A DNA stretch of 64,000 bases from Clostridia bacterium (GCA_017399065.1 JAFQEL010000034.1:280-64279); one strand, 5' to 3'; positions 26,178 to 33,852 are shown, numbered from the stretch's first letter. Notes: generated from the sequence alone by a model not told the origin. A program made the numbers and translations.

Positions 26178-26247
26178 AAAAAAATTGAGTATTCACAGGT
26201 CAAATCCCTTATGAATACTCAATATGGTCGGAGTGACGGGACTTGAA
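26178..26247 (-). repeat. Perfect 70-bp direct-repeat copy of the tRNA-Pro 3' end (23 nt) plus its downstream terminator (att-like site, distal copy)
   Basis: Identical base for base to 33729-33798. Identity breaks at 26177/33728 (t vs c) and at 26248/33799 (a vs c). Confidence 0.9.
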
Positions 26248-26402
26248 AGCTGAAGAAGCCTTCGCGTATCGTTGCGCATCACGTTGTCAAGCGCTATGTT
26301 TCAACGATTATAAAATTCACATTTGTTGTTCCGTTTCACATTTTTGCATATCTTTTCATAAAAATAAGGACCAAACAAGGACCATTCATAGTTTTTAAGA
26401 AT

Positions 26403-26438
26403 AAAAAAACCGCTGAAACCAAGAAGTTTCAACGGTTT
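26403..26438 (-). terminator. Rho-independent terminator downstream of atpC
   Basis: On the minus strand, AAACCGTTGAAAC..GTTTCAGCGGTTT hairpin followed by U7. Confidence 0.7.
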
Positions 26439-26584
26439 TGAGTGGTACGGATGTTCATAACACAAGTAGTTCTCCGGCAATACATATTCTATCTTTTTTA
26501 ATGTAACACATTTCCTATTCAATAATGAACCACCGCAGAAATTATAACTAATACAACCTTGACAGAAAAATCAATGCGGTATTT

Positions 26585-26881
26585 TTATTGGTTTTCTTTT
26601 ATACTATTTACTGTTAATCTGACAGTATTGTCTTCAATAATACCAAAGCCGTCAGAAGTTTCGACAGATAAAATCAGTTTATCACCCGTATATGCAGTAA
26701 CTACACCTGCACTGAGAGAAAAAATAGTATTTGCATGTCCTTTTTTTATTCCGTAGGAACCTGAAAACTTTCCCTTAATATCATCGGCAATATTCAGCCG
26801 TATATTGTCACATTCCGGAATTTCAATTTGTCGGTCAACTGTAAAAATCGTAAGCGAAAGATTATCTTTCATACTGGTCAC
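26585..26881 (-). CDS. atpC: F1 ATP synthase epsilon subunit, short form (beta-sandwich only, 98 aa)
   Basis: Last gene of the operon. 4-bp overlap with atpD. The epsilon-like beta-sandwich sequence ends with no C-terminal helical hairpin. Confidence 0.65.
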
Positions 26882-28278
26882 CTGTTGTTAGCCATATATT
26901 TTTTAAATACATCATCTATTGTACCGGACATAAGGAAATGCTGCTCAGGAATATGGTCACACTCTCCTGAGAGAATAGACTCAACGCTATCAACAGTCTT
27001 TTCGAGAGGGACGTAGATACCCGCTTGTCCCGTAAAACTTTCAGCAACGTGGAAAGGTTGACTCATAAAGCGCTGTACACGTCTGGCTATTTTTACAATT
27101 TTCTTATCTTCAGAAGAAAGCTCTTCCATACCGAGAATCGCAATAATATCCTGAAGCTCTGCGTATTTCTGTAAAACACGCTGAGTTTCCTTTGCCGTGC
27201 GATAGTGTCTGTCACCAACAAAATCAGGAGAAAGAACTCTTGAAGATGATTCAAGGGGGTCAACTGCAGGATATATACCAAGTTCAACAATCTTCCTTGA
27301 AAGAACTGTTGTTGCATCAAGGTGTGAGAATGTAGTTGCAGGGGCGGGGTCTGTAAGGTCATCGGCAGGGACATACACTGCCTGTACTGAAGTTATAGAG
27401 CCGTTGCCTGTTGATACAATTCTTTCTTGTAATTTACCCATTTCAGATGCTAGTGTAGGCTGATAACCTACTGCTGACGGCATTCTGCCTAAGAGAGCCG
27501 ACACCTCACTTCCTGCCTGAGTAAAACGATAAATATTATCAATAAACAGAAGTACATCCTTGTGTGCTTCTTCACGGAAATATTCAGCCATTGTAAGACC
27601 TACAAGCGGCACACGAAGTCTGGCTCCCGCAGTTTCATTCATCTGACCGAAAACAAGAGCGGTTTTATCAATAACTCCTGACTGATTCATTTCATTCCAG
27701 AGGTCATTACCCTCTCTTGAACGCTCACCCACACCCGCAAAAACAGAGTAACCGTCATGTTCAAAAGCAACATTACGGATAAGTTCCATAATAAGCACCG
27801 TCTTACCTACACCTGCACCGCCGAAAAGACCGATTTTGCCGCCTTTCACATAAGGTGTCATAAGGTCGATAACCTTAATTCCTGTTTCAAGAATATCATT
27901 AGCAGATACAATCTCAGCAAATGACGGAGCCTGGTGGTGGATAGGCCAATGTTTTTCTGTATTTATATCTTCTCCTCGGTCAATAGGCTTACCTGTTACA
28001 TTAACCATTCTGCCTAAGGTTTCTTCACCAACGCAAATTTTAATCGGAGCACCTGTATCGACAGCTTTCATTCCTCTTGACATACCGTCAGTGGGATTCA
28101 TAGAAATACATCTGACTTCGCCGTTGCCAAGATGCTGTGATACTTCAAGGGTATATTTTTCGTTTTTGACCTCAACATTTATTGCGTTGAAGATATCGGG
28201 AATATCGAATTGGTCAAAAAGTATGTCAACTACGGGACCCGTAATTCTCTGGACCATTCCTACGGAACCTTCAGCCAT
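26878..28278 (-). CDS. atpD: F1 ATP synthase beta subunit
   Basis: Walker A GGAGVGKT, ..[12 protein letters not shown].., DELSEED-like [10 protein letters not shown]. Confidence 0.95.
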
Positions 28279-28281
28279 CTT

Positions 28282-32071: not shown

Positions 32072-32740
32072 TTATTCTGTAACTTCATCCAAATAGATTG
32101 ATACAAGCATTGTGAATACGATTGCCTGTAAGGCGCAAAACAGAAGTGAAAGCACCATCATTACAACAGGCGCGCCTATGGGGAGAATGTGATAAAGCTC
32201 CTCGGTCACCGTTTCTTCGCCGAAAATGTTACCATAAAGCCTTAATGCCAGAGATGCAGGCTTGATTATTTCATCAAGGAGCATCAGAGGAAGCATAAAG
32301 AACATCGGTGATACAAAACGTTTAAAATAATGCTTGGTATTGTGTTTTATACCCGAAATCTGGAGGAACACAAATGTAACGATACCAAGACCCAAAGTTA
32401 CGGAAAGACTCGCCGTAGGTGCTTTGACATATTCTGTAAGACCTACTCCCGGAATAAGTCCTGAATAGTTCGAGAAAATGATAAAGATAAAAAGCGATGA
32501 TAAAAATGTAAAGTATTTTCTTGCTTTTTTCTTGCCGAGAGTATCTGAAAAGAAATTATCAAGATACTCAACACCGGTTTCAATAATGTTCTGAAATTTA
32601 CCCGGGCGTTCCTTGAGATTTTTCTTTACGACAAGAGAAAGAACTGTAATAACCGCAAGAATAATCCACATAGTTACGACCTCTCCTGTAACGTCGAGAA
32701 AACCAAAAATTTTGAAAAGCACTTCGGATTTTTCACCCAT
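32072..32740 (-). CDS. atpB: Fo ATP synthase a subunit
   Basis: Conserved ..LALRLYGNIFGEE.. arginine helix. Polytopic membrane protein. Confidence 0.9.
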   Translation of the reverse strand: MGEKSEVLFKIFGFLDVTGEVVTMWIILAVITVLSLVVKKNLKERPGKFQNIIETGVEYLDNFFSDTLGKKKARKYFTFLSSLFIFIIFSNYSGLIPGVGLTEYVKAPTASLSVTLGLGIVTFVFLQISGIKHNTKHYFKRFVSPMFFMLPLMLLDEIIKPASLALRLYGNIFGEETVTEELYHILPIGAPVVMMVLSLLFCALQAIVFTMLVSIYLDEVTE

Positions 32741-33059
32741 CTACTTCTTCCTCCTTTCTCTTTTCTTTACTGCGAAGAGTTTCATTAAGGGTGAGAAGCT
32801 TCTTAGTAAAAATAAACATCGGTACTGTTATACCCAAAACAGCGCCAACTAAAAGATACATCGGGTCGTAGTTCGTTTTTTTACTGATAAAATATACAAT
32901 AACAAGAAATGCTATCTGTACTATCTGCCGCAACACCGTTGTAGCAGAATATTTATCAGGGATTTTTGCGAGAACAGTTTTCGATATGAGGTAATTTACG
33001 AATGCCACACCTACACCGACTACCGCCACAACAACCGCACCGATAATATTCGAAATCAT
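32733..33059 (-). CDS. AtpI-like small membrane protein (first gene of the atp operon)
   Basis: 108 aa, about 4 TM helices, 8-bp overlap with atpB, RBS GAAGGTGA. Confidence 0.55.
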   Translation of the reverse strand: MISNIIGAVVVAVVGVGVAFVNYLISKTVLAKIPDKYSATTVLRQIVQIAFLVIVYFISKKTNYDPMYLLVGAVLGITVPMFIFTKKLLTLNETLRSKEKRKEEEVDG

Positions 33060-33340
33060 AAGTTCACCTTCTTGATCCTACTTCGTTTTTTTATTATATT
33101 ATTTTATTATCGTTTTTTCAAGTAAAACACAAATTTTTTAGAGAGGTTTTGATTATGGATGAAAACAAAAATTAATAAATATTATAAAAAGTTGTTTTAA
33201 TTCTAAATTATAAAAATAAATTCCACTTTTGTAAAAATACTATACTTTTTGTCCCCCCAAAAAAAGTTACCCCGAAAAAAATTTATAATAATGTCATCAA
33301 AGATTCAAGCAGGCTTTTTACCTGCATAGGAGGTGCACAA

Positions 33341-33701
33341 ATGGGGCACAGAATACGTGACGGTGACCTTTATAAAATCGCTGTGATTGCGGATAAGAGC
33401 TTAACCACACGCTACGGATATTCTACTGAATCTGAGCGTGAAAAGTGGGAGCCGACTCCGATATATCCCGATTTTATTTCCGAGCCTGTTTACACGGCAA
33501 AGGGAATTCCCTTTGCAACGGCTTATCAGGATGTGTGTGAGCATTATGTCGCCAAACCGAACATTAACAGTGAAAAATGGTGCGATAAAGGCTGTAAGAG
33601 CACTTCACAAAAAAATGTATCCCGATTGGGCTGAAATGATAAACAAGTCAGTCGTGTCAAATCTTTCCGAAAGGAATGCGACGATACATAGAATCTATTA
33701 A
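33341..33701 (+). pseudogene. Unknown-function gene split over two overlapping frames (frameshift at an A5 or A7 tract)
   Basis: Strong RBS AGGAGGTG precedes ATG 33341. Frame 1 ends at 33634. Frame 2 (33438..33701) continues with a natural-looking helix ..NGAIKAVRALHKKMYPDWAEMINKSVV... Homopolymers gaaaaatgg and cacaaaaaaatg lie in the overlap. Confidence 0.45.
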
Positions 33702-33728
33702 ATTTATATATAAAACTCTATTTTAAGC

Positions 33729-33798
33729 AAAAAAATTGAGTATTCACAGGTCAAATCCCTTATGAATACTCAATATGGTCGGAGTGACGGGACTTGAA
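33729..33798 (-). repeat. Proximal copy of the 70-bp direct repeat (tRNA-Pro 3' end plus terminator)
   Basis: Identical to 26178-26247. Includes the tRNA terminator ATTGAGTATTCA..TGAATACTCAAT plus U7 on the minus strand. Confidence 0.9.
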
Positions 33799-33852
33799 CC
33801 CATGGCCTCTTGGTCCCGAACCAAGCGCGATACCAAACTTCGCCACACCCCG
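33776..33852 (-). tRNA. tRNA-Pro (anticodon CGG), CCA encoded
   Basis: Hand-folded. Acceptor CGGGGTG/CACTCCG, D arm GCGA-AGTTTGGTA-TCGC, anticodon arm CTTGG-TTCGGGA-CCAAG (CGG, G37), variable loop AGGCC, T arm ATGGG-TTCAAGT-CCCGT, discriminator A, CCA. 77 nt. Confidence 0.9.

Follow-up and report, generated by a model that had tools for sequence, protein, structure and literature searches.

A complete F1Fo ATP synthase operon inside a recurrent, putatively mobile cassette at tRNA CCA ends of gut Clostridia

The accretion of integrative elements into tandems is known in Firmicutes, where cis-mobilizable elements (CIMEs) and arrays made up of ICEs (integrative and conjugative elements) as well as IMEs (integrative and mobilizable elements) have been described (PMC5704250), including in Faecalibacterium/Oscillospiraceae (PMC12084326). 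In Dehalococcoides, the islands found at the ssrA gene encode, on the reverse strand and next to attL, a CcrB-like large serine recombinase; a ParB-domain gene lies close to it, and the islands occur in tandem, the recombinase-less ones bearing respiratory genes (PMC3146451). In Tn4451, recombination by TnpX takes place at a 2-bp identity (PMC5704250). The present analysis deals with a stretch of 64,000 nucleotides from a Clostridia bacterium (GCA_017399065.1 JAFQEL010000034.1:280-64279), hereafter the window, in which a complete F1Fo ATP synthase (atp) operon lies between the ends of a recurrent 7,333-bp cassette, named M, directly after a tRNA-Pro(CGG) gene. ATP synthase operons are regarded as stable, vertically inherited core genes and serve as phylogenetic markers.

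The locus drew attention through a perfect direct repeat of 70 bp (26178-26247 and 33729-33798, 100% identity across 70 nt, spacing of 7,551 bp), composed of the last 23 nt of the tRNA and 47 nt downstream of it. The original prediction described these coordinates, the intact tRNA at 33776-33852 and the 3' fragment of the tRNA in the distal copy (23 nt at 26225-26247) correctly. Both repeat junctions were also recovered in independent assemblies at 99.99-100% identity, one contig covering a GH43 gene, the tRNA and the operon start (L096) and two covering a DUF5071 gene, the distal repeat and the operon end (L098 and L099); therefore the repeat is not an assembly artefact. The proposal that the two copies are the attL and attR sites of one island fails, however, because the recurrent unit stops 195 nt before the distal repeat and has a right end of its own. 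Read along the minus strand, the window contains tRNA-Pro, M, a remnant of 218 nt (a segment X of 195 nt plus a 23-nt copy of the tRNA-Pro 3' end) and a second cassette, C2, an order that is confirmed by the spacing of the repeats (7,551 = 7,333 + 195 + 23). The 70-bp repeat is the trace of two successive junctions between a tRNA-Pro 3' end and a hairpin, H1, one belonging to M and the other to C2. The features are as follows:

33776..33852, minus strand: intact tRNA-Pro(CGG) (ARAGORN; Rfam tRNA, 62.5 bits); its 3' CCA, 33776-33778, is the insertion point
33729..33798, minus strand: proximal copy of the 70-bp repeat, the last 23 nt of the tRNA plus the 47-nt hairpin H1 of cassette M
26443..33775, minus strand: cassette M, 7,333 bp, found again as a unit in other contexts, with nucleotide-exact boundaries in L081, L086, L089, L132, L134, L140, L142 and L143
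33664..33775, minus strand: family left end inside M, comprising H1 (33729-33775), a further 65 nt or so and then the first arm of hairpin 2 (15-locus alignment)
26443..26497, minus strand: right end of M, AGATAGAATATGTATTGCCGGAGAACTACTTGTGTTATGAACATCCGTACCA; cassettes 1 and 2 of L132 terminate in this 55-nt sequence too
26248..26442, minus strand: segment X, 195 nt, outside M; it starts with the atp terminator, 26406-26439
26225..26247, minus strand: 23-nt copy of the tRNA-Pro(CGG) 3' end, which closes the X remnant and supplies the second CCA junction
26178..26247, minus strand: distal copy of the 70-bp repeat, the 23-nt tRNA fragment plus the hairpin H1 of cassette C2
25606..26224, minus strand: cassette C2, 619 bp, with H1 (26178-26224), the GTAACCCACT hairpin region, the DUF5071 gene and a canonical right end
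25688-26095, plus strand: gene of 135 aa with a DUF5071 match, in C2
25606-25628, minus strand: canonical right end of C2, AATCCCTTATGAACATCCGACCA (chance expectation 0.00)

M begins one base past the CCA of tRNA-Pro, with T ATTGAGTATTCATAAGGG... (H1), and terminates at ...TTATGAACATCCGTACCA, 195 nt short of the distal repeat. H1, the 47-nt portion of the repeat, is a hairpin of 12-14 bp followed by a run of T (-19.1 kcal/mol, z = -5.95) and resembles a terminator for the upstream genes. The left end of M is 88-97% identical to those of other cassettes, and its own cargo begins after ..CCTTTCGGA. Segment X follows M in the window and in L089 (97.3% identical) and is absent from all other contexts of M. 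In L089, M, X and the tRNA fragment are followed by a different terminator, with neither C2 nor a distal hairpin, and in L081 M is directly followed by a decayed H1, both X and the fragment being absent. The H1 of M in the window has the canonical GAATAC, as in C2, whereas other copies of M have GAGTGC or GAATGC; this suggests that gene conversion between the neighbouring H1 copies probably produced, or keeps, the perfect identity of the 70 bp. A mini-cassette of 0.6 kb analogous to C2 is found in L109 (6276-6858).

Small units of 140-220 nt, the X remnant among them, occur in tandem after tRNA genes (L081 6917-7546, fewer in L082; L109 6122-6274; window 26225-26442). Each combines a terminator, the T-arm copied in inverse form (GGCGAGACTTGAAC), a structured part of 60-90 nt and 20-23 nt copied from the tRNA 3' end. 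Their folding is strong (z = -6.7), no Rfam family matches them, and their copy number varies between samples. They could be what decay has left of the ends of tyrosine-integrase elements, or else miniature elements. The idea that they, or the cassette right end, are a known RNA was dropped, since Rfam matches above the gathering score were tRNAs only.

The evidence that M is a discrete unit comes from its recurrence in other genomic contexts. The large b'-delta-alpha fusion protein of the operon is 98-100% identical in dozens of metagenome contigs, many of them only about 7 kb long. Across contexts M is 98.6-99.8% identical, with at least four classes of left flank and at least eight of right flank, and the complete copies (7,333-7,343 bp) have the same nucleotide-exact boundaries in each. 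On the left, M is preceded by GH43 and tRNA-Pro(CGG) in the window; by a Na+/H+ antiporter gene and tRNA-Pro(CGG) in L089; by PHO4, tRNA-Pro(GGG) and an array of small units in L081, L082 and L142; by the right end of a cassette with AhpF, AhpC, desulfoferrodoxin, MFS and adh_short genes in L086 and L132; and by the right end of a TnpV/DUF6809 cassette in L090, L134 and L140. On the right, it is followed by segment X (window and L089), by the decayed H1 and a gene of 198 aa (L081), by a terminator, a tyrosine-recombinase remnant and shikimate-pathway genes (L086), by GH28 and GH16 (L132), by a large serine recombinase (L134), by an IS200-type transposase (L091), by an ABC-transporter cassette (L093), or by an ABC ATPase and GH38 (L135). 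Every context recurs across several samples and assembly pipelines (JGI, ENA, NCBI and Logan).

The comparison between the window and L089 is illustrative. M is 99.25% identical (47 differences in 7,344 positions), X with the tRNA fragment 97.3% (219 nt), the tRNA and its promoter 95.6% (159 nt), and the antiporter region 86.8% (2.6 kb). In addition, L086 and L132 have in common a composite of 13.45 kb (98.4% identity), made of part of the TnpV cassette, the oxidative-stress cassette and M, which stops exactly at the CCA of M and is flanked by different chromosomal genes in the two. The idea of an ATP synthase operon borne by a recombinase-less, tRNA-integrating element was right in spirit: the cargo has moved, with about 99% identity in at least eight contexts. 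Its anatomy, with the repeats as attL and attR, was wrong. As a separate observation, L098, whose flank corresponds to window positions 15688-32765, matches the window perfectly (100%) as far as about 29400, a point within the alpha fusion gene, and drops to about 80% identity in what remains of the operon; the contig is a metagenome chimera, or else its atp operon is recombinant.

M belongs to a family of cassettes with shared ends. A scan of metagenome contigs with 18 nt of H1 gave 31 loci, 17 of them with the full hairpin. The junction ..CCA/T ATTGAG is present at 14 of these 17 H1 sites and in all copies of the left end of M; the H1 sites of L104, L121 and L131 differ and have no preceding CCA. 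H1, with 65-300 nt of conserved left end, lies directly 3' of the CCA of tRNAs, of tRNA-end copies and of cassette right ends: it follows tRNA-Pro(CGG) in L103, L112 and L114, tRNA-Pro(GGG) in L116 and L125, tRNA-Pro(TGG) in L119 and L130, tRNA-Leu(TAA) in L128, a copy of a tRNA 3' end in L102, L109, L113 and L129, and the right end of another cassette in L122. The other cassettes run from H1 to a right end ...TTATGAACAYYCGYACCA. The right-end consensus, AAATCCCTTATGAACAC(C/T)CG(C/T)ACCA, is found in L102, L104, L109, L112, L122 and L128, in M and C2, and in the first two cassettes of L132; M itself ends in a diverged version, GTGTTATGAACATCCGTACCA. The cargo varies within the family: an ABC-2 transporter with LytTR and DUF3021, a set of GNAT, cupin and methyltransferase genes, oxidative-stress genes, or single small genes. 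Arrays are formed as well. In L132 three cassettes lie head to tail, each running from H1 to a right end, and tandem arrangements are seen in the window (M, X remnant, C2), in L134 (M, then a recombinase element) and in L093 (M, then the ABC cassette). None of the H1 cassettes is accompanied by a target duplication past the CCA.

The right and left ends, once joined, give AAATCCCTTATGAACACCCGCAC-CA-TATTGAGTATTCATAAGGGATTT, an imperfect dyad of 48 bp, with its outer 14 nt perfectly inverted, which is centred on the CA of CCA. On the target side, only CCA is conserved across tRNA-Pro, tRNA-Leu, tRNA-Met and cassette ends. The attP sites of serine integrases are about 50 bp long, with dyad half-sites and a 2-bp crossover, and integration leaves no long duplication. 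The joined ends thus appear to be laid out like the attP of a large serine recombinase, with a presumed crossover at the CA.

Candidate recombinases adjoin such junctions. TnpX-like large serine recombinases (Resolvase + Recombinase + Zn_ribbon_recom + DUF4368), encoded on the reverse strand, have their 3' end about 80-125 nt from a junction of CCA/T and hairpin. This is so in each of the three lineages examined, whose mutual identity is 62%:

L116 and L125: tRNA-Pro(GGG) CCA/T, H1, hairpin 2, recombinase, ParB-like and NikA-like genes
L134: the CCA/T of M, an H1-like hairpin, hairpin 2, recombinase
L150-L158: tRNA-Met CCA/T, hairpin, hairpin 2, recombinase

The H1 left end is common to M and the recombinase-bearing L116 and L125, and the recombinase element of L134 has the H1-like hairpin. 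In L154, a left end of the L150-L158 type is joined to a ..GCCA/T site that is not a tRNA and that adjoins an Abi_2 gene. In a database comparison, the H1 and recombinase element of L116 gave weak matches to recombinase genes, ParB genes and a tRNA in PLSDB.

Other details of these elements deserve mention. In L150 (10001-17013), a segment with tRNA-Met and MgtC, AzlC and AzlD genes lies between two different large-serine-recombinase elements, one of which bears a type I restriction-modification system. In L116 (1079-4691) and L125, a block of 3.6 kb with the recombinase, ParB and NikA genes stands between hairpin 2 and the rest of the conserved left end; at that point most family members (L104 was compared) have only TTTTTTGTGGGTTTTAGGG..CCCTAACAAG, and the cargo of M starts within hairpin 2, some 20 nt upstream of that point. 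Either the short left ends are deletions or the recombinase block is an insertion.

The origin of the cargo is indicated by sister species. The nearest operons outside a cassette, in L144 and L145, encode fusion proteins 85-86% identical to that of the window, and the operons themselves have about 80% nucleotide identity to M and 84% to each other. They have a common context, complete in L145: dnaE ... SCIFF peptide, radical-SAM maturase, decarboxylase / atp / GH43 / adh_short. Neither operon has H1, a cassette right end or the 97-aa gene of M, and the homology is limited to positions 652-7196 of M, from the promoter to the end of the epsilon gene; distant relatives (L001-L003, 74-85% identical) likewise have only the operon in common. 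What M carries is therefore an operon of the kind native to the host family, a normal chromosomal one that came to stand between cassette ends. The GH43 gene beside the tRNA in the window was considered as an orthologue of the one beside the sister-species operon and was discarded at 23% identity.

Taking these results together, we think it likely that M is a non-autonomous, CIME-like integrative cassette, a member of a tRNA-CCA family of Oscillospirales gut bacteria on which TnpX-like recombinases act in trans. The action in trans on cassettes of the M type is inferred from the dyad layout of the ends and from the recombinases that adjoin such junctions in three lineages. In the mechanism that we propose, elements of the family would recombine site-specifically at the CCA end of tRNA genes, and the CCA-ended right end of an integrated cassette would also serve as a target, giving tandem arrays. 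The TnpX-like large serine recombinases of autonomous relatives would move the cassettes in trans. At some point an ordinary chromosomal atp operon would have come between cassette ends, producing M, which would then have spread among related lineages. If the window copy can still move, the excised circle would join ..GTGTTATGAACATCCGTACCA|TATTGAGTATTCATAAGGG..GCTTAAAATAGAGTTTTATATATAAATTT and the matching empty site would read tRNA-Pro ..CACTCCGACCA|CTCAAAACCGTTGAAAC; a deletion by homologous recombination between the repeats would instead leave the full tRNA-Pro, H1 and ATTTCTATATTAAAG. A bolder version, in which an F1Fo operon of these gut Oscillospirales, possibly the only one of the cell, has left its ancestral locus and travels between species within an undescribed integron-like tRNA-CCA array system served in trans by a TnpX-like clade with the 3' ends of many tRNA genes as its recognition sites, is offered tentatively, and we judge it rather doubtful.

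Several observations count against the trans-mobilized cassette. M and the 64-kb window lack a recombinase, so that its activity in the genome of the window is at most presumed, and no complete autonomous element with both ends was recovered. The right end of M has a degenerate distal half-site, GTGTTATGAA in place of CCCTTATGAA. The sequences compared are metagenome contigs throughout. Copies of M differ at 5-13 positions within one context class and at 28-87 between classes, so that insertions or transfers appear to have been modest in number; this clustering fits a limited number of past events followed by vertical inheritance, not frequent hopping. Tyrosine-recombinase remnants are also found beside such junctions (L086); together with the 20-23-nt tRNA copies they indicate that a second kind of element uses these sites, and the 23-nt copy implies that a second, duplication-making system acts there. 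Finally, neither product of excision was seen. The empty site, with the full tRNA-Pro 3' half and the flank of the 26177 side, gave no hits in the JGI metagenome collection, the only one searched for it and one in which the species is rare, and no circular junction of M was found.

Further searches belong here. The contigs of the same species all carry the repeat or break at it. L093 and L094 were considered as candidates for the circular junction and rejected, because the H1 after M runs there into the full left end of the ABC-transporter cassette and not into M. H1 and the cassette right end were absent from the viral contigs searched, and M had no match in PLSDB. In the scan of a genome collection, the best match was 78% identical, and the window's own species was not among the results.

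The alternative that survives best is that the window copy is a fixed relic, in which only the deletion of M and X by homologous recombination between the 70-bp repeats would still be possible; we hold this to be a possibility of some weight, though on the unlikely side. The lack of a recombinase in the window, the degenerate half-site and the way in which the variants of M follow their contexts are all in line with it, and loss would be selected against if M is the sole ATP synthase. On the other hand, the visible portion of the genome is just 64 kb, and this recombinase family acts in trans in comparable CIMEs and in pseudo-SCC elements related to the staphylococcal cassette chromosome (SCC) (PMC5704250).

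A second possibility accepts the cassette family and assigns its movement to a tyrosine, Xer-like or other recombinase, the serine recombinases being unrelated elements that share the same hotspot. The C-terminal remnant of a tyrosine recombinase does adjoin the right end of M in L086/L088, the 20-23-nt tRNA 3' copies in X and the small units are typical of tyrosine integrases, and inverted half-sites around a short spacer would fit the core sites of tyrosine recombinases too. However, the three serine-recombinase lineages all share the succession of CCA/T, hairpin, second hairpin and recombinase 3' end, H1 cassettes show no target duplication past the CCA, and half-sites of about 23 nt have the size known for serine integrases; we therefore find this option unlikely.

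Much less probable is the single island of 7.55 kb, inserted by a tyrosine integrase into the tRNA-Pro 3' end, flanked by the 70-bp repeats as attL and attR and later deprived of its integrase. The repeat does include the tRNA 3' end, and L089, where M, X and the 23-nt fragment also follow tRNA-Pro(CGG), could be read as an element with a 23-nt core. Yet in six other right contexts the shared DNA ends at the CCA of M, 195 nt short of the fragment; neither X nor the fragment is present in L081, nor the distal hairpin in L089; this hairpin belongs to C2, which has its own right end; the same hairpin stands after many tRNAs with only CCA in common; and no integrase gene lies inside the interval beside the tRNA. 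That nothing is mobile at all, the contexts being chimeric contigs joined at H1 or right-end sequences or the atp allele having spread by homologous recombination only, is extremely improbable, for although repeats of H1 and of the right end do exist within genomes and communities and L098 is a mosaic of 100% and then about 80% identity inside the operon, the stretches shared exactly are not as long as the assembly k-mers to which the k141 contig names point, each context is found in several independent samples and pipelines, and the flanks are non-homologous, so that homologous recombination cannot place M there.

As regards its gene content, M encodes solely an open reading frame (ORF) of 97 aa and eight atp genes, and has neither recombinase nor transfer genes. 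The complete F1Fo operon that had been predicted is confirmed by Pfam, which gives all subunits:

26585..33059, minus strand: F1Fo ATP synthase operon (Pfam)
32733-33059, minus strand: atpI-like gene
32072-32740, minus strand: subunit a
31795-32028, minus strand: subunit c
31336-31761, minus strand: subunit b
29121-31331, minus strand: b'-delta-alpha fusion, 736 aa
28282-29124, minus strand: subunit gamma
26878-28278, minus strand: subunit beta
26585-26881, minus strand: subunit epsilon
33093..33121, minus strand: atp promoter-like site TTGAAA-17-TATAAT; homology to the sister-species operons starts shortly upstream
33341..33634, plus strand: intact ORF of 97 aa, function unknown, no Pfam match; passenger remnant

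The 97-aa gene had been described as frameshifted; the ORF at 33341-33634 is intact. It is taken as a passenger fragment because its homologues head operons with GerE, 105-aa and aerolysin-like genes. A role as an excisionase was considered and set aside, because neither a Pfam nor a PHROG-type signal was seen and the operons that hold its homologues are unrelated. The terminator attributed to the operon does exist, but at 26406-26439 (minus strand), the sole strong intrinsic terminator past atpC, it falls outside the recurrent unit; in each context, atp termination seems to be supplied by whatever comes after the CCA of M, be it H1 or another terminator. The absence of an integrase, also part of the original prediction, extends from the interval to the whole 64 kb: no recombinase and no second ATPase were found in the window (tblastn and Pfam, all ORFs of at least 200 aa). 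The genes around the interval are ordinary chromosomal ones (pyruvate kinase, glycoside hydrolases, pyruvate:ferredoxin oxidoreductase and LeuA).

The operon has some features of its own. In the alpha fusion (736 aa), a b-like N-terminus is followed by the C-terminal portion of delta (OSCP) and then by alpha, and a separate b subunit of 141 aa is encoded next to it. The fusion is conserved at full length in metagenome-assembled genomes of Acutalibacteraceae and Oscillospiraceae, and near-full-length matches, from query residue 5-7 onward, occur in contigs of Patescibacteria, Syntrophales and Desulfobulbus (loci for the fusion: L001-L010, L045, L054 and L076). In Na+-binding c subunits, two positions of the carboxylate motif hold Ser/Thr and Thr; the c subunit of the window (31795-32028, minus strand) has Ala and Leu there, which suggests proton coupling despite the Na+/H+ antiporter gene nearby. 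Elsewhere in the window (55037-57373 and 57691-59976, minus strand), two tandem paralogues show an unusual combination of helix-turn-helix, cupin and AMP-binding (acyl-CoA-synthetase-like) domains.

A canonical operon placed between recombination sites, with about 99% identity where one comparable flank has about 87%, is a concrete vehicle for the exchange of the bioenergetic core. How surprising this is depends on M being the sole ATP synthase of these bacteria. If serine recombinases drive the cassette system, the known target repertoire of enzymes much used in genome engineering would be widened, and the system would help to explain how gut Clostridia shuffle small adaptive modules.

Compared with described systems, M resembles the CIMEs and the ICE/IME tandems in being flanked by att-like ends, in lacking integration and transfer genes, in its tandem position at a tRNA 3' end and in its adaptive cargo. 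CIMEs at tRNA genes are mostly derivatives of tyrosine-integrase elements, with direct repeats of the tRNA end, whereas the M family has half-sites like those of serine integrases, shares only CCA at the junction and, in M, carries a complete F1Fo ATP synthase operon. In a full-text search of a limited library, no account turned up in which an ATP synthase operon forms a discrete site-specific cassette. The lateral transfer of an F-type ATPase operon as a unit is known from the N-ATPases, but these have the order atpDCQRBEFAG, lack delta and are a second enzyme (PMC2881411), unlike the canonical-order operon of M, which is of the host family's own type. The operon of M was checked as a possible N-ATPase and rejected on its order (I-like, a, c, b, b'-delta-alpha, gamma, beta, epsilon) and the presence of the OSCP (delta) domain.

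The closest mechanistic analogues are the Dehalococcoides ssrA islands and the SCC/pseudo-SCC composites of staphylococci, which likewise lie in tandem where a tRNA-like or housekeeping gene has its 3' end and include recombinase-less islands with respiratory or adaptive genes. A reverse-strand large serine recombinase next to the left end, with a ParB-type gene in the vicinity, is a further common trait. Each of these systems has a single target gene, ssrA or rlmH, and a 20-bp repeat is left by the ssrA islands; the M family, in contrast, uses the CCA of several tRNAs and of earlier cassettes, is associated with TnpX-like (DUF4368) recombinases and comprises many cassettes of 0.6 to 7 kb. With Tn4451/Tn4453 it has in common the TnpX-type domain set and a NikA-like mobilization accessory gene (PMC5704250); the 2-bp crossover and very short repeats of these transposons are also comparable, and TnpV genes occur in the cassettes neighbouring M in L086, L090 and L132. 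Tn4451, however, has low target specificity, for a GA dinucleotide, and its own recombinase, while the M family is directed to the tRNA CCA end and most of its cassettes have no recombinase. Integron cassette arrays and pdif modules are also short, recombinase-less modules arranged head to tail and served by a recombinase in trans; they differ in recombinase class, in site structure and in the place of their arrays, at attI or on plasmids, the M family being anchored at tRNA genes. In kind, tandem islands of serine recombinases and CIMEs are thus already known, and what is unusual here is the ATP synthase cargo, the targeting of the CCA of many tRNAs, the terminator-like hairpins of the left end and the many very small modules being further differences from the known tandem islands.

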